Position numbers and translations under genes: made by a program
The notes under the pieces: generated by a model
The model's database searches: none
Seen by the model: the letters and a program-made list of their open reading frames with translations, nothing else
What the model was told of the DNA's origin: nothing
Shown here: piece by piece, positions 22,445 through 55,377 of the stretch
How the letters are laid out: each line of letters starts with the position of its first letter
Position numbering within the stretch: the stretch's first letter is position 1
NCBI GenBank assembly: GCA_049587755.1
Contig: JBAVEN010000082.1
Coordinates: forward strand, 9,804-73,803
Length of the DNA stretch: 64,000 nt
Origin: Bryobacteraceae bacterium
GTDB taxonomy: Bacteria > Acidobacteriota > Terriglobia > Bryobacterales > Bryobacteraceae
Direction of reading: 5' to 3'

Positions 22445-22692
22445 GGCCTGCCCTCATCGCGGTCGGCCTTGAGGACATCCCAATTGAAAGGTCCGGTCTT
22501 CAGACTGCTGGCGCGGGAACGGATGCGTTCCGCCGCCCCCTTCGCCTGCGCGCAGTCGATGCCCCCAGCACTCGCCACCAGGCGGGCAACTGGTTTGCCG
22601 TGTCTGGTGATCACGATTTCCTCACCCCGCTCGACGCGGTCCAATAGGCTGCCCAGCGTGTTCTTGGCTTCGAAGGCTCCAACTTCCTGCAT
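22441..22692 (-). CDS. Phd/YefM-family antitoxin
   Basis: EAKNTLGSLLDRVERGEEIVITRHGKPVARLV. 4-nt overlap with vapC. Confidence 0.85.
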   Translation of the reverse strand: MQEVGAFEAKNTLGSLLDRVERGEEIVITRHGKPVARLVASAGGIDCAQAKGAAERIRSRASSLKTGPFNWDVLKADRDEGRP

Positions 22693-22708
22693 AACATCCT
22701 CTTAGTCT

Positions 22709-22725
22709 AGCTTAAGCCAGCTTAA
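22709..22725 (-). promoter_or_regulatory. candidate operator: direct repeats AGCTTAA-GCC-AGCTTAA just upstream of the phd-vapC operon
   Basis: Two exact 7-mers, each containing the CTTAAG palindrome, lie 17-33 nt upstream of the ATG at 22692 and next to a TATATT -10-like hexamer on the minus strand. Confidence 0.35.
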
Positions 22726-22824
22726 TATACATCCGCAACCACCGGCGGTTGATTCAATGGTCAAGCCTAGTCGCTTTCGCCTGCGCCCTACTCGTGGCGC
22801 GGAGCACCTTCGCTACTTCAGCGC

Positions 22825-24168
22825 TTAAGGCGTCAACCCCGTTACGCCCCGGCTGTCTTTCACGCTCACCTGGCTGCCGTCTGCGGTCTGAATACGCGTC
22901 TTGGTGAACTTCCAGTTCTCCGCGTTCTGAATGCTCCCCGCCGTCTTGGCTTCAATGTCCACATCTTTGAAGGTGAAATTCTCGAGCGGCGAATCCGCGT
23001 AAGAACTCACCGCGAACGCGCGGCCGGCGCCGCTCGCCCGGATGCCGGAGATCTGCACGTTCCGCAGATGCGGCAGTCCCAACGCCGGCGGCACCGGCTC
23101 CAGCAGCACGCGCCAATAGTCCGGCACCCTGGTCATGCCCTGCGGCAGCTTGGCATAGCTGTAGCTGGGGTTCCAGTTCAGCGCCACGCCGATCGCCGTG
23201 CTGACACCCTGGATATCCATGTCGTCGATGACGATGTTCTTCACCGTGCCCCCGCGCCTGCTGGCCGACTTGAACAGAATTCCGTTCGACACCGATCCGA
23301 GCACGTGTATGCCGTGCGCTTCCACATCGCGGATTCCGCCCGAGGTTTCGCTGCCGAAGGTGATTCCCGCCGCGCCCGCGCGCACCGTGTCGTCGCGGAT
23401 CACCACGTGCCCGGTCGGCCGGTTGACGCGCAACCCGTCGGCGTCCCGTCCCGCCTTCAGGCAGATAGCGTCGTCGTTGCACTCGATGTCGCAATGCTCC
23501 ACCAGCACGTTCGAAGACGAATCGACGTCGATGCCGTCCGTGCTCGGCCCCTTGCCGCCAATGTTGTTGCGAATCGTGACGCCATCCACCGTGACCTTCT
23601 GCGAATAGCAGATGTGTACCGTCCAGAAGCCCGAGCGGCTCAGCCGAGGCCCCTCTAAATCGACATTCGAAGATTTATAGACTTGAATCAAGCGCGGCCG
23701 CTGGCAGTCGTAATCGGCAGCCCAGCGCAGGCCTTTGGGCTCGTAATCGCGCCTCAAGCTCCAGTACTTGTCCCACCAGATCTTGCCGTCGCCGTCGATC
23801 GTGCCCTTGCCCGAAATCCTCACCCCCGATTGTTCGTACACGTTGATGAGCGCTGCCGGCCATTTCATCTCGATGCCCGCGACGCGCGTCGGCATCATCG
23901 GGTATCCTTCCAGGCTCTGGACGCCGCGAATCACCACGCCTTCGTCCAACCGCAGATGCGTGCCCGATTTCAGAAACAGCGCGCCGCTCAGATACACTCC
24001 CGGCCGGAGCACAATCGTTCCGCCGGTTTTCGCCGCCGCGTCGAAGGTCCTCTGAATGGCCGCAGTGTCGTCCGTCTTCCCGTCGCCTTTGGCGCCATAA
24101 TCGGCCACCCGAAAGTCAGCGCACCATCCTGCGGTCCCAATCGCAACCGCGCATACAACCACGCGCAT
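22825..24168 (-). CDS. glycoside hydrolase family 28 / pectate-lyase-fold protein, secreted
   Basis: Signal peptide MRVVVCAVAIGTAGW. DYGAKGDGKTDDTAAIQ, GPSTDGIDVDSS and ECNDDAICLKAG parallel beta-helix motifs. Start taken at ATG 24168. Confidence 0.8.
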   Translation of the reverse strand: MRVVVCAVAIGTAGWCADFRVADYGAKGDGKTDDTAAIQRTFDAAAKTGGTIVLRPGVYLSGALFLKSGTHLRLDEGVVIRGVQSLEGYPMMPTRVAGIEMKWPAALINVYEQSGVRISGKGTIDGDGKIWWDKYWSLRRDYEPKGLRWAADYDCQRPRLIQVYKSSNVDLEGPRLSRSGFWTVHICYSQKVTVDGVTIRNNIGGKGPSTDGIDVDSSSNVLVEHCDIECNDDAICLKAGRDADGLRVNRPTGHVVIRDDTVRAGAAGITFGSETSGGIRDVEAHGIHVLGSVSNGILFKSASRRGGTVKNIVIDDMDIQGVSTAIGVALNWNPSYSYAKLPQGMTRVPDYWRVLLEPVPPALGLPHLRNVQISGIRASGAGRAFAVSSYADSPLENFTFKDVDIEAKTAGSIQNAENWKFTKTRIQTADGSQVSVKDSRGVTGLTP

Positions 24169-48442: not shown

Positions 48443-48590
48443 CGGGCAACCTCTTGAGTGATTTCGGTTTGATTTTAGCATGCGGAAACCAGGGGGCTCG
48501 CCGACGATTCCCGATTCCGGATCCCAACAAAAAAAGCCGGTGGCACGCTTCGCCACCGGCCTCCCCCGAACACTCGAAATTGCTATGCCG

Positions 48591-48914
48591 TCACCGGCGC
48601 CAGTGACCGGCGTAATAGCGGCCGCCGAAATAGCGCGGGCCTACCCAAACCGCGCCCGCGAAAGGCCGGCGAGCCCAGTAACCGGGGTGCCCTCCCCACG
48701 CGACGATCCACACATAGCCGGGCCGCGGCATGGGCGGCGCATAATAAGCCGGCGCCACCGGCGCGGGAGCGTACGCCACCACAGGCGCGGGAACATAGGC
48801 GGGGTACGTGTACACGGGGCGGACGCCGCCGAACCCAATGCCGAAGAACCCTCGCGGCGCGGCAAACGCGCTGGCACCAGCCAAAAGAAGAACAGCAAGC
48901 AATTTCGTTTTCAT
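48591..48914 (-). CDS. small secreted Gly/Tyr/Trp/Pro-rich protein, YXWGXW-repeat-like
   Basis: Signal peptide MKTKLLAVLLLAGASAFA. GYVWIVAWGGHPGYW and YYAGHW resemble the WxxGxW repeat family. AAGGAGGAG SD. A sigma54 promoter lies upstream. Confidence 0.6.
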   Translation of the reverse strand: MKTKLLAVLLLAGASAFAAPRGFFGIGFGGVRPVYTYPAYVPAPVVAYAPAPVAPAYYAPPMPRPGYVWIVAWGGHPGYWARRPFAGAVWVGPRYFGGRYYAGHWRR

Positions 48915-48974
48915 GACTCCTCCTTAATTCCCTACGTCCGCCGCCCTCTCGGAGCGGCTCACGCTCTGGATAAT

Positions 48975-48990
48975 TGCAAACCGCGTGCCA
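48975..48990 (-). promoter_or_regulatory. sigma54 (RpoN) -24/-12 promoter
   Basis: The minus strand reads C-TGGCACG-CGGT-TTGCA-A, an exact match to TGGCACG-N4-TTGCW. It lies 61-76 nt upstream of the ATG at 48914. Confidence 0.75.
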
Positions 48991-49094
48991 GACGCAACTG
49001 GTTGAGAATCAAGGGCTGCCTGGCCTTCCGGCTGGCCGCCCTCCACCGCCGCGGTGGTTTTCGGCCATCGGCGAGAGGCTCCCCGTACCGGTTT

Positions 49095-49108
49095 TTACAC
49101 GCGTGTAA
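49095..49108. promoter_or_regulatory. candidate enhancer (UAS) palindrome TTACACGCGTGTAA
   Basis: A perfect 14-bp palindrome about 105-120 nt upstream of the -24 element. A partial repeat TGACACGCG follows at 49113-49121. Confidence 0.35.
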
Positions 49109-49208
49109 CGCCTGACACGCGGGCTTGGCAAGCAAACATCGATCTTTCAACCACTTAGCCTTCGGCATCCGGGCTGCATCCTCAACCTGCGTACGGAAGA
49201 TCGGAAAG

Positions 49209-49733
49209 ATGTTCAAGACGGAACAGCAGATCAGGAAGATGGCGACGCTGACTGGCGTGCTGCTGATGGTGGCGGCGGAAGCTCTCGCCCAGGACAAGCA
49301 GCAGCCCGCGCGGCGCATCATTGTCAGCATTCCGGACCGCAAGCTGGCGGTGATGGAAGCGGGGCGCGTGCTGCGTATTTTCCCCACTGCCGTGGGCGCA
49401 ACCAAAAGCCCGAGCCCGGCCGGCGCTTACAAAATCATCGACCGCATTCCCGATCCTACCTGGTACACCAAGGGCCGCATCGTTCCGCCCGGCAAATTCA
49501 ACCCGCTGGGCACGCGCTGGCTCGGCTTGAGCGTCAGGGGATACGGCATTCACGGCACCAACAATCCCGCCTCCATCGGCCACAACGCATCGCACGGCTG
49601 CATTCGCATGCGCAACCACGACGTGGAGCAATTGTTCGAGATGGTCTCCGTGGGAGACGCCGTGGAGCTGTATGACGAGGCCACGCCGGAGACCGGGCAG
49701 ATCTTTGCGGCCGCTACCGGCGGCGCGCAGTAG
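49209..49733 (+). CDS. L,D-transpeptidase (YkuD domain)
   Basis: Signal or anchor segment, then GIHGTNNPASIGHNASHGCIRMRN (catalytic His/Cys motif). Confidence 0.85.
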   Translation: MFKTEQQIRKMATLTGVLLMVAAEALAQDKQQPARRIIVSIPDRKLAVMEAGRVLRIFPTAVGATKSPSPAGAYKIIDRIPDPTWYTKGRIVPPGKFNPLGTRWLGLSVRGYGIHGTNNPASIGHNASHGCIRMRNHDVEQLFEMVSVGDAVELYDEATPETGQIFAAATGGAQ

Positions 49734-49763: not shown

Positions 49764-49892
49764 ATGGAAAACTTTTTCGGATGTATCCTGATGGCGGCGA
49801 TCACGCTGCCGCTGTCGTTCTTCGTGGCGCGGGGCTGCTTGCGCGGCATCATCCGCGCCCTCGGCGGGAGCAGGAATCGCGATGTGCTATGA
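49764..49892 (+). CDS. possible 42-aa single-TM peptide
   Basis: MENFFGCILMAAITLPLSFFVARGCLRGIIRALGGSRNRDVL. Its TGA overlaps the ATG of the next gene (ATGA at 49889-49892). Not in the ORF track because it is shorter than 60 aa. Confidence 0.3.
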   Translation: MENFFGCILMAAITLPLSFFVARGCLRGIIRALGGSRNRDVL

Positions 49893-51088
49893 TCGCAGCC
49901 GTGACTGCGAGGCGCGCGGCCTGGGCCGCGCTTCTGCTCTGGGCCGTGCCGCTGGCCTATGGCGCCGAGAACCTCGAAGGCGCGGTGCGCGAACTGGCGG
50001 CCAAAACCGCGCTGCTGGCGGGCGCGGGCACGCCGGTTTCGGTTACCTGCCGCAACGCATCATCGCTCGATTCAGCCGCCGCGTCTCGCCTGCCGGCGGC
50101 GTTTGAGAATCTCCTCGAGCAGGCAGGCGGGCACCCAGGGCAAGGCGCGGACGCGGTGAATGTTGCGCTCACGCTGTCCGAAAACGCCACCGACTACCTG
50201 CTGGTGGAAGACGCGCATAAAGGCGACCAGCGAACCGTGTGGATCGCCGCCTGGAAGCGCCCTGCCGCGGGCCAAACCACGGCGACTGGCGCGGGCCTCG
50301 AGAAAAAGCTGGTCTGGGAACAGGAAGAGCAGATTCTCGACCTGGCGATCTCCGGCGACGCCATGCTGGTGCTGGCGCCCTCCGGGATCGCGTTATTCGC
50401 GCGCAATGGGGACCGCTGGGAACCGCGTCAAACCGTGCGCCTGGCGCCGCCGCGGCCGTGGCCGCGCGACCTCCGCGGCCGCCTGCACCTGACCGCGCCG
50501 GGCTTTGAGGCATTCCTTCCCGGCTTGGCTTGCCAGGGCGCCATGGCGCCGCAGTTGACGATGGACTGCCGGCCGGGCAGCCAGCCGTGGATGCTCGAAT
50601 CCGGCAGCCGCGCGCTGCTGGCCGCCAGTTTCGCGCCCGGGCGCAATTACTTCGATGGGCATGTCGTGACACAAACCGGCGCCGCCCGCACAGCGCCGCC
50701 GTTCTTTTCCGCCGCCGCGGTGGAGGATCGCGCATCCACTTACTGGTTGCTGGCGCTGGCGGACGGGCGGGCCGAGCTGTTCGACGTCAACTTCAACCCG
50801 CTGGCGCCGATGCCTTCCTGGGGCGGCGATCTGGCCGGTATCGATGGGCGATGCGGTGCGGCGACCCAGGTGCTCGCCACGCGCGCCGGTGACGCCAACG
50901 AACCTGACGCTATTCAATCCTGGGCGGTGGTGGACCGGACGGCCGGCCCGCTCACGGCGCCCATCCTGTTCCCCGGTCCGGTAACGGCGCTGTGGACCGC
51001 CGGCCCCGATTCGGCCTTGGCCGTTGCTCGCAGCCTGGTCAGCGGCAGATACGAAGCTTATGTGGTTACGCTGGCCTGCGGGTCGTAA
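49889..51088 (+). CDS. secreted hypothetical protein
   Basis: Signal peptide AAWAALLLWAVPLAYGAE. 399 aa with no recognisable family. Confidence 0.6.
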   Translation: MIAAVTARRAAWAALLLWAVPLAYGAENLEGAVRELAAKTALLAGAGTPVSVTCRNASSLDSAAASRLPAAFENLLEQAGGHPGQGADAVNVALTLSENATDYLLVEDAHKGDQRTVWIAAWKRPAAGQTTATGAGLEKKLVWEQEEQILDLAISGDAMLVLAPSGIALFARNGDRWEPRQTVRLAPPRPWPRDLRGRLHLTAPGFEAFLPGLACQGAMAPQLTMDCRPGSQPWMLESGSRALLAASFAPGRNYFDGHVVTQTGAARTAPPFFSAAAVEDRASTYWLLALADGRAELFDVNFNPLAPMPSWGGDLAGIDGRCGAATQVLATRAGDANEPDAIQSWAVVDRTAGPLTAPILFPGPVTALWTAGPDSALAVARSLVSGRYEAYVVTLACGS

Positions 51089-51155
51089 CGAGATGCCTGA
51101 CGCTGGCCCCGCGCGCCACGGTGCTGGCCACCGCTCCCTCACGGTCGCGGCTCCG

Positions 51156-52262
51156 ATGCGGCTTCTGAGCCGCGACCTTGAGGGAGCGGTTGGTGCCGTC
51201 ATCGCGGAACCAGCCCTGGTGCGAGGACACCAAGCTGGTCTCTCCGCGATCGTCTTGTCAGTTTCGTTGCTGCTCGTCTGCGCCTTTTGCAGCCCCGCTC
51301 CCGCCGCCACGCGGCCGCGCTACGGCGGGACGCTGCGGGTGGAGATCCAGGCTTCCATCGAGACCGCCGATCCGCCGCAGCTCGGGCCGGGAATGGCCGA
51401 TCTGGCGCCGGCGTTCGCCATCACGCGCTGGGAAGCGGGCAGGCGCGCGGCCTTCGCAGCCGATGAGAACGCGCCTGGGGGACGGCCGTTTCTGGACGCC
51501 GTCGAGGTCGAACTGGCGCGTCCGCCGCGCGAGCAAGGCATCGATCTCGACGTGGGTAAAGCCGATCTGATCGAAATTCCTCCCAGCGAAGCCCGGCGCC
51601 AGCCCGCCGGCCGCCGCACCTGGGTCTCGCAACCAGTGCGCGTGCTGCTGTTGCTGTTTGGCACGCGCGTGGACGATCCCCGCGCGCGAGAAGCTCTGTC
51701 GCTGGCGGTGGACCGGACGGCGATCTTCAACGTGCTGCTACAGCGGCAGGGCGAGATTTCGGGCGCCCTGCTGCCGCAATGGCTCTCGGGCTATGCGTTC
51801 GTGTTCAGCGCGGCCTCCGACACCGCCAAGGCGCGCGAGTTGGCCGCGGCCATCCCGGCGGCTGCGCGCAGTTTCAGTATCGGCGTGGAAGATGCGGCGC
51901 TGCGGCCCATCGCCGAGCGCATCGCGCTCAATGCGCGAGATGCCGGGCTGGCGGTCGCGGTCGCTCCGCAGGGCGGCGCCGGCGACGTGCGCCTGCTGGA
52001 GGTGCGCATCGCCACCGCCGATCCGGCGCGTGCGCTGGCCGCCATCGCCGCCGCCCTGGGCCTGCCGGCGGCGCCGCCCGCCGAATCGCCCGACGCGCTT
52101 TACAACGCCGAGCGCAGCCTGCTCGAGGACTTTCGCGTGGTACCGCTGTTCCACCTGGCCGATGTCTACGGCGTGGCGGCGCGCGTGAAGGGCGGACCGG
52201 GCATTTCGCCGCTGGGCGAGTGGCGTTTTGAAAATGTCTGGCTGGAAAGCGGCCGGCCATGA
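51156..52262 (+). CDS. reduced family-5 (peptide/nickel type) solute-binding-protein-like periplasmic protein
   Basis: RPRYGGTLRVEI N-terminal signature, LLFGTRVDDPRAREALSLAVDR and VVPLFHL. Much shorter than canonical SBP5 proteins. ATGA overlap with the histidine kinase gene. Start uncertain. Confidence 0.55.
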   Translation: MRLLSRDLEGAVGAVIAEPALVRGHQAGLSAIVLSVSLLLVCAFCSPAPAATRPRYGGTLRVEIQASIETADPPQLGPGMADLAPAFAITRWEAGRRAAFAADENAPGGRPFLDAVEVELARPPREQGIDLDVGKADLIEIPPSEARRQPAGRRTWVSQPVRVLLLLFGTRVDDPRAREALSLAVDRTAIFNVLLQRQGEISGALLPQWLSGYAFVFSAASDTAKARELAAAIPAAARSFSIGVEDAALRPIAERIALNARDAGLAVAVAPQGGAGDVRLLEVRIATADPARALAAIAAALGLPAAPPAESPDALYNAERSLLEDFRVVPLFHLADVYGVAARVKGGPGISPLGEWRFENVWLESGRP

Positions 52263-53998
52263 CGTTCCGCACCCGCCTGCTGATGGTCTTCACGCTGGCA
52301 GTGGTGGCCTCGGTGGGGATGGTGGAGTGGCTGGTGACGCGCGCTACGCGGGAAGCCTTCGAGCGCGTGGAGCACGAGCGCGCCGACGTCCTGGCCGCCC
52401 AATTCCAGCGCGAGTTCGCCCGGCGCGGCCAGGAAATCGTGCGCGCCGTCAAGGACATCGCCCAGTCCGACGCCGCCGTCAATGTCGCCATCTCCTCGGA
52501 CGACTCCGCTTATTACAACGAAGCGTCCGCCATGGCGCGCGCCCACGGGCTTGGGCTGCTCGAACTGGTGGGCGGCGATGGCGCCATCATCTCCTCCGCG
52601 GAGTGGCCAGTGCGCTTCGGGTACGTGGAAGATTGGCTGGCGTCGCCATCGGGCTGGAAGCCGGGTGTCGCTTTCCTGCGGCGCGAAGAGCTGCCGGATG
52701 GATTCACGCTGGCGCTCGCGGCGGTAGAAACGGTGAATGCCGGCGGCCGGCAACTGTACGTGGCGGGCGGCCAGCAGCTCGACCAGGATTTCCTCGCCAC
52801 TCTGGTGCTGCCCGCGGGGATGCGCGTGCTTCTGTACCGCAACCTGGAACCGCAGTTTGCGCCGCATCTGCTGGCCGGCACCGCCGATACCGCGGCTGAC
52901 GCGCAGGAGTTTCAGCCGCTGATCGAACAGGTGATCCGCGAGCGGCGCCCGCTGCTGGCCACTTTGGGCAGCGGCGCCGCGGGGGAGACGGTCCATGCGC
53001 TGCCGCTTGCCGGCATCGAAAACAACCTGCTGGCCGTGCTGCTGATTTCGAGCTCGCGCCGCGAGCTGGTGGAATTGGAAAACTCGCTCGGCCGAAACGG
53101 CGCCTGGGTGGCGGCGGGCGCCATCTTCACCGGCATGCTGATGGCGGCCTGGGCCACCGCGCGCGTCACTCGCCCGGTGCGGCGGCTGGCCGAGAGCGCC
53201 GGCCAGGTGGCGGCCGGAAACTGGAGCGCCACGGTGGAGGTGACCTCGCGCGACGAGGTCGGGCAACTGGCGCAGGCCTTCAACCGCATGACGCATGAGT
53301 TGGTGGAGCAGCGCCAGCGCCTGGTGCAGACCGAGCGCGTGGCCGCCTGGCGCGAGCTGGCAAGGCGTCTGGCGCATGAGCTCAAGAATCCGCTTTTTCC
53401 CTTGCAAATCACCGTTGAAAACATGCAGCGCGCCCGCGAGAGCCATCCGGCGGAGTTCGATGAAGTCTTTCGCGAAGGCAGCCGCACGCTGCTGGCCGAG
53501 TTGGCCAATCTCAAGCAGATCATCGCCCGCTTTTCCGATTTCGCCAAAATGCCGGCGCCCGAAATGCAGCCGGTGAATCTGAACGCGCTGGTCGCGGAAA
53601 CCATGAAGCTGTTTGAGGCCCAGTTCGCCCAGGCGCGGGTGATGGCGCGGGCGGAGCTGGCTCCGGCGCTGCCCACCGTGTCCGCCGATCCGGAGCAGAT
53701 CGCGCGCGCGCTGCGCAACCTGGTGCTCAACGCCATCGATGCCATGCCGGAAGGCGGCGCGCTGACGGTGCGCACCATGCCGCAAGGCTCGGGCGCGCGC
53801 CTGGAGATCTCCGATTCCGGCAAAGGCCTGAGCCAGGAGGAATGCGAGCGCCTCTTCACGCCCTACTACACCACCAAGACGCACGGCACGGGCCTGGGCT
53901 TGGCCATCGTGCAATCGGTGGTCAGCGATCACCACGGCCGGGTTTCGGTGGAGAGCCAGCCCGGCAAGGGCACCACCTTTCGAATTGACTTAGGGTAA
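52259..53998 (+). CDS. sensor histidine kinase (periplasmic sensor, HAMP, HisKA, HATPase_c; NtrB/AtoS-like)
   Basis: Two TM segments, HAMP, H-box LAHELKNPLFPL, N-box LVLNAIDAM, G-boxes DSGKGL and GTGLGLAIV. Confidence 0.9.
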   Translation: MTFRTRLLMVFTLAVVASVGMVEWLVTRATREAFERVEHERADVLAAQFQREFARRGQEIVRAVKDIAQSDAAVNVAISSDDSAYYNEASAMARAHGLGLLELVGGDGAIISSAEWPVRFGYVEDWLASPSGWKPGVAFLRREELPDGFTLALAAVETVNAGGRQLYVAGGQQLDQDFLATLVLPAGMRVLLYRNLEPQFAPHLLAGTADTAADAQEFQPLIEQVIRERRPLLATLGSGAAGETVHALPLAGIENNLLAVLLISSSRRELVELENSLGRNGAWVAAGAIFTGMLMAAWATARVTRPVRRLAESAGQVAAGNWSATVEVTSRDEVGQLAQAFNRMTHELVEQRQRLVQTERVAAWRELARRLAHELKNPLFPLQITVENMQRARESHPAEFDEVFREGSRTLLAELANLKQIIARFSDFAKMPAPEMQPVNLNALVAETMKLFEAQFAQARVMARAELAPALPTVSADPEQIARALRNLVLNAIDAMPEGGALTVRTMPQGSGARLEISDSGKGLSQEECERLFTPYYTTKTHGTGLGLAIVQSVVSDHHGRVSVESQPGKGTTFRIDLG

Positions 53999-54006
53999 CC
54001 TCAGAT

Positions 54007-55377
54007 TTGGCTCACTTGCTGATTGTCGATGACGACGCCAACACGCTGGCGTCCCTTGCGCGCGCGTTTCGCCTGGCTGGCCACGAGGCCGTCGTCTGCG
54101 ATAACGCGGCGCGCGCGCTCGAGCTGGCGAAATCGCAGCCCTTCGACCTGATGATGTCCGACGTGGTGATGCCGGGCAAGGACGGGCTGGCATTGCTCGA
54201 AGATCTGCGCGCGGCCGGCATCGCACTGCCGGTGGTGATGATTTCCGGGCAGGCCAACATCGAAATGGCGGTGCGCGCCACGCGGCTGGGCGCCATCGAT
54301 TTCCTCGAAAAACCCCTTTCCACCGATAAGCTCCTGCTCACTGTCGATAACGTGCTCAAGCTGAAGCGCCTGGAGGAAGAGAACCGCGATTTGCGGCAGC
54401 GCGTGGGTAAGCACGAGATTGTGCACTCGGGCGAAGCTATGCGCCGCGTGATGGCGCAGGTGGATCGCGTGGCGGCCAGCGAAACGCGCGTCTGCATTTT
54501 GGGCGAGACCGGAACCGGCAAGGAACTGATCGCCCGCGCGCTGCATGACCGCAGCCAGCGCAGCGCGGGGCCGTTCGTCACCCTCAACTGCGCCGCCGTG
54601 CCGGGCGAGCTGATTGAAAGCGAGTTGTTCGGCCATGAGAAAGGTTCGTTCACCGGAGCCGCCGCGCGCCATCTCGGCAAGTTCGAGCAGGCCCATCGCG
54701 GCACGCTGTTCCTGGATGAGATTGGCGACATGCCGCTGGTGATGCAGGCCAAGCTGCTGCGCGTGCTGGAGGAGCGGCAGGTGGAACGCGTTGGTGGCGA
54801 CCGCGCCATCCCGGTCGACGTCCGCGTGATCGTGGCCACTCACCGCAACCTCGACGAGTTAGTCAGCAAGGGCGCGTTCCGCCAGGATCTGTATCATCGC
54901 ATCTATGTTTACCCGCTGCTGCTGCCGCCCTTGCGCGAACGCACCGAGGACATACAGCCGCTGGCCGAGCACTTCGCGCGGCAGGTGGCGGAAATCAATG
55001 GCTGGAAGGCAAAGCCGCTGACGCCGGAGGCAATCGCGGAGCTGGTGCGCTACCGCTGGCCCGGCAACGTGCGCGAGTTGCGCAACGTGGTGGAGCGGCT
55101 GCTGTTGCTGGCCGATGGCCCAGTGGACGCCGCGGCGGCGCGCCTGGCCTTGCCCGAAGCTGCAGATGCGCCGGCGGCAGCGCCCTCATCCGGCCACACT
55201 CTCGCCCAACGCGTGGATGGTTTCGAGCGCGGCCAGATCCTGACCGAACTGAAACGTCACGGCCAGCGTATGTCCGACACCGCCAAGGCGCTTGGTCTGG
55301 AGCGCAGCCATCTCTACAAGAAATGCCAGGCGCTCGGCATCGACCTGCGCGCCCTGCGCCACGCAGAACCGTCGTAG
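54007..55377 (+). CDS. sigma54-dependent response regulator (NtrC family: REC, AAA+, Fis-type HTH)
   Basis: LLIVDDD...DLMMSDVVMPG receiver domain. GETGTGKE Walker A, GAFRQDLYHR, and C-terminal HTH TAKALGLERSHLYKKC. Confidence 0.9.
   Translation: MAHLLIVDDDANTLASLARAFRLAGHEAVVCDNAARALELAKSQPFDLMMSDVVMPGKDGLALLEDLRAAGIALPVVMISGQANIEMAVRATRLGAIDFLEKPLSTDKLLLTVDNVLKLKRLEEENRDLRQRVGKHEIVHSGEAMRRVMAQVDRVAASETRVCILGETGTGKELIARALHDRSQRSAGPFVTLNCAAVPGELIESELFGHEKGSFTGAAARHLGKFEQAHRGTLFLDEIGDMPLVMQAKLLRVLEERQVERVGGDRAIPVDVRVIVATHRNLDELVSKGAFRQDLYHRIYVYPLLLPPLRERTEDIQPLAEHFARQVAEINGWKAKPLTPEAIAELVRYRWPGNVRELRNVVERLLLLADGPVDAAAARLALPEAADAPAAAPSSGHTLAQRVDGFERGQILTELKRHGQRMSDTAKALGLERSHLYKKCQALGIDLRALRHAEPS

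Follow-up and report, generated by a model that had tools for sequence, protein, structure and literature searches.

A probable divergent σ54-type control region and a putative σ54 regulon of secreted low-complexity proteins in Terriglobia

Promoters of the NtrC/glnAp2 type are activated by dimers that bind upstream palindromes and reach the promoter via DNA looping, which is often assisted by IHF. The σ54 regulons of the Acidobacteriota, a dominant and poorly cultured soil phylum, are essentially uncharted, and our literature searches on this subject found nothing. Here, we analyzed a 64,000-nucleotide stretch (the window) of contig JBAVEN010000082.1 (C82) from a Bryobacteraceae genome of 5.69 Mb and 62.6% GC. 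In this window, a 294-bp intergenic gap (positions 48915 to 49208) separates a small gene for a secreted protein from a divergent L,D-transpeptidase (LDT) gene. The explanation that we favor, and that we consider likely when taken as a whole, is that the gap is a divergent double σ54 control region with two back-to-back units. In one unit, the promoter P1 and the upstream site UAS2 would serve the small gene together with a regulator of the type encoded on contig C88; in the other, the promoter P2 and the site UAS1 would serve the LDT operon. Like NtrC/glnAp2-type systems, this locus has a GG-N10-GC promoter, a palindromic site at about -80 to -90 with helical-turn phasing, and an IHF-like box in or close to the interval that separates the site from the promoter, and the candidate activators are response regulators with a receiver-AAA+-helix-turn-helix (HTH) architecture.

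When the upstream regions of 12 congeners were aligned, separate conserved blocks emerged with variable sequence between them. The blocks were CGTGTCA-N7-ACACGCGTGTAAAAACCGGTACGG, the near-invariant TGGCCGAAAACCACCGCGGCGGTGCAGGGCGGCCAG, TTTCAATGAGTTGCG, TGGCA..N..TTGCA, a GAGCCGC...GGCGGCGG hairpin, and a Shine-Dalgarno sequence, and the footprints fell at UAS1, UAS2, the IHF-like box, the -24/-12 element, the 5' hairpin, and the Shine-Dalgarno sequence. In three other genera (genomes G013, G029, and G048), the σ54 element and the second block (UAS2) were kept and the first block (UAS1) was absent.

P1, which reads TGGCACGCGGTTTGCA, is located at 48975 to 48990 on the minus strand, with the GG at 48988 to 48989, the GC at 48976 to 48977, and a predicted +1 near 48964. 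It was identical to TGGCACG-N4-TTGCW at 12 of 12 fixed positions, and the GG-N10-GC spacing was exact. A preliminary description of this DNA had reported the exact motif, written as an 18-mer that corresponds to 48974 to 48991, and had estimated 0.01 chance matches per window; dinucleotide shuffles yielded 0.02 exact matches per window, which was close. Genome-wide, two exact matches were seen and about 1.5 were expected according to our own arithmetic from the GC content, so the motif alone had no genome-wide significance. The weight of the P1 call comes from its context rather than from the motif alone. Specifically, both exact matches were intergenic (as judged with a crude gene mask), correctly oriented, and located 5' of genes for small secreted Gly/Tyr-rich proteins; the second match, on contig C29, was the identical 16-mer, placed 37 nt 5' of its gene. 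In the 12 congeners, TGGCA and TG(C) of P1 were kept and the N positions varied, and σ54 elements were also found 5' of the small-gene orthologues in G029, G048, and G013 and at paralogous loci. A scan for σ70-like promoters found none in the region. The genome contained rpoN (a PF04552 match of 197 bits on contig C26). The earlier proposal of a σ54 promoter before a tiny secreted WXXGXW-like gene was supported by a -24/-12 element that was kept in the 12 congeners and several genera, by the presence of rpoN, and by the PF12779 matches in the protein family that are described below.

UAS2 is a 35-bp composite palindrome, TGGCCGAAAACCACCGC-G-GCGGTGGAGGGCGGCCA, at 49033 to 49067 on the minus strand. 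Its center lies at about -86 from P1, and it was nearly invariant in the 12 congeners. A position-count scan of the genome with the pattern TGGCYGAnnnSCACC-N5/6-GGTGSnnnnCRGCCA identified three sites that matched at 22 to 23 of 23 positions; all other sites matched at 21 or fewer, and all but two of those were in coding sequence. The three top sites were the one at this locus, C29:43991-44026, and C77:28050-28085, and they were located 77, 88, and 78 bp, respectively, 5' of a GG-N10-GC element. The genes behind them code for signal-peptide proteins of 107, 186, and 344 amino acids with aromatic/Gly-rich tails, and the C29 and C77 proteins had no family match in Pfam or NCBIfam. The exact UAS2 pattern was matched 22 times in 41 relatives, compared to 0 times for a reversed control. 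The footprint of the C29-type promoter showed the same pattern in four species, and in at least five genera a TGGCGA-N5-ATGCA-type element accompanied UAS2 at C77-type orthologues. When about 185,000 species genomes were scanned, at least 119 UAS2 loci emerged, overwhelmingly from Acidobacteriota (Bryobacterales, Solibacteraceae, and other Terriglobia).

The position of UAS2 relative to the promoter was also constrained. A σ54-like element was located on exactly one side, at 76 to 81 or 86 to 90 bp, in 44 of the 71 public-genome sites. Nineteen sites fell into the shorter class and 25 into the longer class, and none fell at 82 to 85 bp; about 4.5 would be expected if the distances were uniform. 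These two spacing classes are one helical turn apart, as predicted for face-of-the-helix activation. The genes downstream of UAS2 in public genomes belonged to few families, all of them with a signal peptide and an aromatic/Gly-rich composition, and most of the products ended in WRR, FRR, or RRW. The sequence elements, their conservation, their genome-wide recurrence, and their spacing are direct observations. The locus is better read as two back-to-back σ54 units, one of which would belong to a conserved, previously undescribed σ54 regulon of secreted low-complexity proteins in Terriglobia. A separate cluster of GG-N10-GC matches was seen at 125 to 134 bp from UAS2 (11 cases, loci L083 to L201); it could represent either a third spacing phase or a motif that recurs in coding sequence. 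The 10-mer ACACGCGTGT was rejected as an enriched motif, since it had 8 genome sites compared to about 6.5 expected by our own arithmetic.

The comparative data also indicated that UAS2, and not the palindrome singled out in the preliminary description, is most likely the enhancer of P1. That perfect 14-bp palindrome, TTACACGCGTGTAA, does exist at 49095 to 49108, and only 0.07 such sites would be expected even with up to two mismatches. However, it covers only the left arm of UAS1, a 22-bp inverted repeat (CGCGTGT-N8-ACACGCG) at 49100 to 49121 on the plus strand, whose center lies at about -79 from P2 and about -146 from P1. UAS1 occurred once in the genome, was conserved in congeners, and is proposed here as the enhancer of the LDT operon.

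One alternative is that the NtrC-like regulator encoded in the window binds the palindrome at about 49095 to 49121 and activates P1 from about -140, and perhaps P2 too, thereby forming one local envelope regulon. In 12 of 12 congeners, the small gene was divergent from the operon of this regulator, which is the classical layout of a regulator and its target; in addition, the distance between UAS1 and P1 is permissible for an enhancer, and UAS1 was conserved wherever the divergent layout exists. Nevertheless, this alternative seemed unlikely given the distribution of UAS1. In G013, G029, and G048, the orthologues of the small gene kept a σ54 promoter without UAS1, the two other UAS2 loci of this genome lacked it as well, and the linkage between the regulator and the small gene was lost outside the genus. 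Conversely, loci without the small gene still had UAS1 next to the LDT operon. G017, a member of another genus, kept the operon order (LDT, unknown protein, SBP5-like protein, kinase, and activator), and there the operon was preceded by ACGCGTGT-GTGCGC-TGACACGCG, a TTTTCAAGCACTTT box, and the σ54 element TGGCGCTCGATCTGCA; its upstream neighbor was a co-directional gene for a LuxR-type regulator, not the small WXXGXW gene. In G014, the LDT gene was preceded by CCGTGT-N8-ACACGG and TGGTAA-N5-GTGCC (the P2 equivalent, TGGTAACGCTCGTGCC), and G004, the only congener without the small gene, retained UAS1, the IHF-like box, P2, and the LDT gene. Because UAS1 was kept in these three genomes without a divergent small gene, it appears to travel with the LDT operon, and we infer that it acts as the enhancer of P2. 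A match to the UAS1 composite pattern in G037 was rejected; no LDT gene was present there, and the match looked like chance.

The genome has 20 strong PF00158 matches to σ54 activators. The preliminary description had presented the activator at 54007 to 55377 as the only one in the window, which was correct, and as the obvious regulator of the small gene, which did not stand up to comparison. This activator is one of the 20 in the genome, it is encoded in the divergent LDT operon, and its linkage to the small gene was confined to one genus. Moreover, no orthologue was detected at an E value of ≤1e-140 in 17 genomes of the sister family f2, whereas UAS2 was spread across Terriglobia, and a regulator of a different type was physically linked to UAS2 elsewhere. 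Among the public-genome UAS2 loci, only four contained a GAFTGA-type gene, and three of these encoded one regulator type, with the HTH sequence NKSxAARLLGLxRNAxRYRL. At loci L090 and L173, the order was kinase, regulator, UAS2, σ54 element, and secreted Gly-rich protein; at locus L150, the regulator was 3 kb away. The best match of the L090 and L173 regulators in our genome was C88:42194-43543 (62% and 60% identity; 545 and 498 bits, respectively), whereas the window regulator scored 339 and 325 bits and ranked sixth. The kinase next to the L090/L173-type regulator matched C88:40827-42068.

The C88-type regulator had a single orthologue in nearly all genomes of families f1 and f3 and in five f2 genera. 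In the genus g30, it was missing from 11 of 11 genomes, and the C77-type protein was also missing, with the exception of two weak matches. The C88 and window regulators are both generic NtrC/AtoC-like response regulators that scored below every equivalog cutoff. None of the 20 activator genes of the genome had a UAS2-like site above background nearby, and contigs C29 and C77 carried no activator gene. The comparison of loci makes the C88 regulator/kinase pair a better candidate for the UAS2 activator than the window regulator, with a chance that we judge to be a little short of even. It is doubtful that the window regulator is the UAS2 activator, and the other activators share the rest of the probability. 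Thus, the promoter call of the preliminary description was sound and its protein description was right, and its enhancer and regulator assignments were probably wrong.

A second alternative concerns the nature of UAS2, which might be a repressor or nucleoid-protein operator, or a structural element (a cruciform or an element like the repetitive extragenic palindromic [REP] elements), that merely accompanies these genes and is not an activator site. UAS2 is a long G+C-rich palindrome that is able to form a hairpin, its binding protein is only a candidate, and 27 of the 71 pattern matches in public genomes were without a σ54 element at the canonical distance. We consider this alternative improbable, however, because the arms were conserved while the center and spacers varied, and the distance to the -24 element was strict and two-phased, with nothing between the two classes. 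Furthermore, the site was always 5' of the promoter and never overlapped it, there were only three copies per genome, unlike REP elements, and no T-run followed UAS2. The weakest alternative, namely, that the -24/-12 match of P1 is fortuitous and that another sigma factor transcribes the small gene, can draw on the 1.5 or so exact matches per genome that composition predicts and on the weakness of the negative σ70 scan as evidence, given that acidobacterial σ70 and extracytoplasmic function (ECF) promoters are poorly defined, but it is very hard to reconcile with a GG and GC at fixed spacing in the 12 congeners and other genera, an identical 16-mer at a paralogous locus, and an element that accompanies UAS2 in dozens of genomes.

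The small gene (48591 to 48914, minus strand) codes for a 107-amino-acid secreted protein, as previously described; the open reading frame was confirmed, and it begins with a signal peptide (residues 1 to 18; MKTKLLAVLLLAGASAFA, followed by AP), continues with a disordered Pro/Ala/Tyr linker, and ends in a C-terminal β-hairpin WXXGXW-like module. Its ATG at 48914 is 60 nt past the P1 motif and is preceded by the Shine-Dalgarno sequence AAGGAGGAG (48917 to 48925, minus strand), which was invariant in the 12 congeners. A 5' untranslated region hairpin, GAGCCGCUCCGAGAGGGCGGCGG (48938 to 48960, minus strand), begins a few nucleotides past the predicted +1. Its sequence was conserved in 12 genomes, and its folding energy was -18.8 kcal/mol (z = -2.0). 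This G+C-rich hairpin at the extreme 5' end of the predicted mRNA may be an mRNA-stabilizing stem or a DNA-level element. Folding of positions 48515 to 48595 revealed an intrinsic terminator with a 15-bp stem and a T-run about 25 nt past the stop codon (48526 to 48565, minus strand; centroid stem GGAGGCCGGUGGCG...UGCCACCGGCUUUUU), which a consensus terminator scan had missed. Since this terminator follows the stop codon, the small gene is predicted to be monocistronic. Eleven of the 12 remaining genomes of the genus had an orthologue, and orthologues were also found in several further genera.

The mature part of the protein has 89 residues, 93% of which are G, A, P, Y, W, F, R, or V, and it contains nine Arg but lacks Asp, Glu, and Lys, which makes it strongly basic. 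More than 200 homologues of 100 to 120 amino acids were found; they are annotated as hypothetical proteins and come from Bryobacteraceae metagenome-assembled genomes where the source was named. The family consensus was MKTKLLA...PGPGYxWIxGYWYPxGxRxxWHAGYWARPPYAGAVWVGPRYYGGRYYxGYWRR (alignment A6), and 12 of 23 family members matched PF12779, with a best E value of 2.7e-6. The window copy and all of its congeners, which form a genus-level clade, were without one 8-amino-acid unit, GYWYPxGxRxxW, that is present elsewhere in the family and equals one WXXGXW repeat. With no match to the PF12779 model, the window protein is a degenerate or divergent WXXGXW relative rather than a scoring PF12779 member. 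In an AlphaFold model, pLDDT (the per-residue confidence) was <50 for residues 18 to 57 and 75 to 87 for residues 60 to 107, and residues 67 to 106 formed six short strands; a search of the model against the PDB yielded no fold match. No report on the function of the WXXGXW/YXWGXW protein family was found in the searchable literature, and we propose that the small secreted proteins are cationic, aromatic-rich components of the envelope or matrix. In G004 (C6, about 22600 to 23100, locus L206), UAS2 was also retained, the sequence beyond UAS2 was replaced, and a stray TGGCACG was located 6 nt from UAS2. This arrangement resembles a natural deletion that removed the small gene and had a breakpoint close to its promoter.

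On the other side of the gap, P2 (CGGCATCCGGGCTGCA) is a σ54-type promoter at 49163 to 49178 on the plus strand, with the GG at 49164 to 49165, the GC at 49176 to 49177, and a predicted +1 near 49189. The LDT start at 49209 lies about 30 nt downstream, and the GG-N10-GC and CTGCA of P2 were kept in 12 of 12 congeners while the spacer bases varied. IHF-like boxes accompany both promoters: TTCTCAACCAGTTG (TTTCAATGAGTTG in most congeners) at 48995 to 49008 on the minus strand near P1, and TTTCAACCACTTA at 49145 to 49157 on the plus strand, 18 nt 5' of P2. The P1 box resembles the IHF consensus WATCAANNNNTTR. Boxes of the form TTTCAAnnnnTTR, with one mismatch, sit 17 to 18 nt 5' of both -24 elements. 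The TTTCAA box was rejected as a general feature of the σ54 promoters of this genome, as only one further case was found.

The LDT gene (49209 to 49733, plus strand) has the conserved start MFKTEQQIRKM. The preliminary description had identified it correctly, as its product contains a YkuD domain (PF03734, E value of 5e-26, residues 63 to 181). It is the first gene of an operon whose remainder (49781 to 55377, plus strand) codes for an unknown secreted protein, an SBP5-like protein (to 52262), a HAMP histidine kinase (52259 to 53998), and the response-regulator σ54 activator (54007 to 55377). In one genome (G011:C173, locus L082:3015-3761), a PF21804 transposase gene follows the second gene of the LDT operon, and the kinase and activator genes are at the start of another contig, which indicates that the operon is disrupted or rearranged there. 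The activator of G011 is on a separate contig because the transposase interrupts the operon.

The proposed mechanism combines these elements. σ54-RNA polymerase would bind P1 in a closed complex that needs an ATP-driven activator bound upstream. UAS2 would act as the P1 enhancer via helix-face looping, possibly assisted by the IHF-like box, and the most probable candidate for its activator would be the NtrC-family response regulator at C88:42194-43543 together with its kinase. The resulting mRNA would be monocistronic; it would have a hairpin near its 5' end, carry a strong ribosome-binding site, and end at an intrinsic terminator, and its product would be a Sec-exported, highly basic protein with a disordered linker and a small β-hairpin WXXGXW-like module. 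The same UAS2-spacer-promoter unit would also control the two other secreted Gly/Tyr/Trp/Pro-rich proteins of this genome and their relatives in Bryobacterales and other Terriglobia. UAS1 would be the enhancer of P2 at the head of the LDT operon, and the window activator would autoregulate its own operon via UAS1 and P2. What we infer here, as distinct from what we observed, are the start sites, the pairing of proteins with sites, the signal that induces the system, and the role of the secreted proteins.

Several observations weigh against this explanation. In the case of the promoters, the -12 element of P1 was weakened in two congeners (TTGTA in G007 and GTGCA in G012), and P2 meets only the core GG-N10-GC and CTGCA, being off consensus (CGGCAT...CTGCA) with a modest score. 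The pairing of UAS1 with P2 and of UAS2 with P1 derives only from comparative co-occurrence, and in this genus each of the two sites is close enough to either promoter to act as its enhancer. The link between the C88-type regulator and UAS2 comes from three loci and one clade-level co-absence, and no target was adjacent to the C88 pair in G000. As for the transcript and its product, a covariation test of the 5' hairpin in 12 genomes found no compensatory pairs, the window protein had no match in Pfam or NCBIfam (including PF12779, even at E values of up to 10), and the mean pLDDT of the AlphaFold model was 62, which is only moderate confidence.

If the favored explanation is correct, it yields a 35-bp cis-element (UAS2), a geometry rule of 76 to 81 or 86 to 90 bp to the -24 element, a candidate two-component regulator, and, as a target set, secreted Gly/Tyr/Trp/Pro-rich proteins that have no characterized function and include the WXXGXW family. 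It also links peptidoglycan cross-linking to enhancer-dependent control, as an LDT operon with its own σ54 activator has a σ54-type promoter. A putative envelope-remodeling regulon is plausible. A broader and speculative reading, which we consider rather unlikely, is that UAS2 and σ54 define a Terriglobia-wide inducible program that exports cationic, aromatic/Gly/Pro-rich, Arg-terminated low-complexity proteins. These proteins (the WXXGXW miniproteins, Gly/Tyr-rich proteins of 150 to 240 amino acids, and proteins of 310 to 410 amino acids with YG/PY tails) would become assembled in the envelope or extracellular matrix, or cover it, as amyloid-like or condensate-like material, under dedicated two-component control, and in this genus the program would be back-to-back with a σ54-dependent peptidoglycan cross-linking operon.

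Other σ54-like elements were seen outside the window. On contig C14 (70837 to 70869), a TTTCAAnnnnTT box and TGGAATGCCGTTTGCA are located 50 nt 5' of a gene whose product starts like citrate synthase, which may be a σ54-controlled central-metabolism gene. Near-identical elements were found at C110:11018, C20:18957, and C111:116925 (TGGCAGGGGAATTGCT twice and TGGCACTGGAATTGCT once). The C110 and C111 elements precede genes for large FtsX/MacB-like (ADOP-type) permeases and may belong to another σ54 regulon.

The mechanism itself is conventional, and the regulon is a new one of the known σ54 kind. In its inner arms, (G/C)CACC-N5/6-GGTG(C/G), UAS2 is similar to the NtrC site of enteric bacteria, GCACC-N5-GGTGC; these arms read CCACC-N5-GGTGG at this locus, with GCACC-N6-GGTGG or CCACC-N6-GGTGC at the other two genome sites. 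Unlike the sites of NtrC/glnAp2-type systems, UAS2 is longer and composite, with the extra outer arms TGGCYGA...TCRGCCA, and its putative targets are secreted low-complexity proteins instead of nitrogen-assimilation genes. In addition, no regulator reached the NCBIfam ntrC equivalog cutoff. The small gene product is like the PF12779 WXXGXW proteins (the "YXWGXW repeat-containing protein" of NCBI) in its size, its signal peptide, and its repeated aromatic-x-W-x-x-G-x-W motif, but the window copy and its congeners are one repeat short, and a Pro/Ala/Tyr linker, together with an invariant WRR at the C terminus, sets the subfamily apart. The LDT operon is reminiscent of the positively autoregulated two-component σ54 operons of the glnA-ntrBC or zraSR type, in that a kinase/activator operon is preceded by a σ54-type promoter and a private palindrome. 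Unlike those operons, it begins with an L,D-transpeptidase gene and contains genes for an unknown secreted protein and a shortened SBP5-like protein, and its autoregulation is a prediction.

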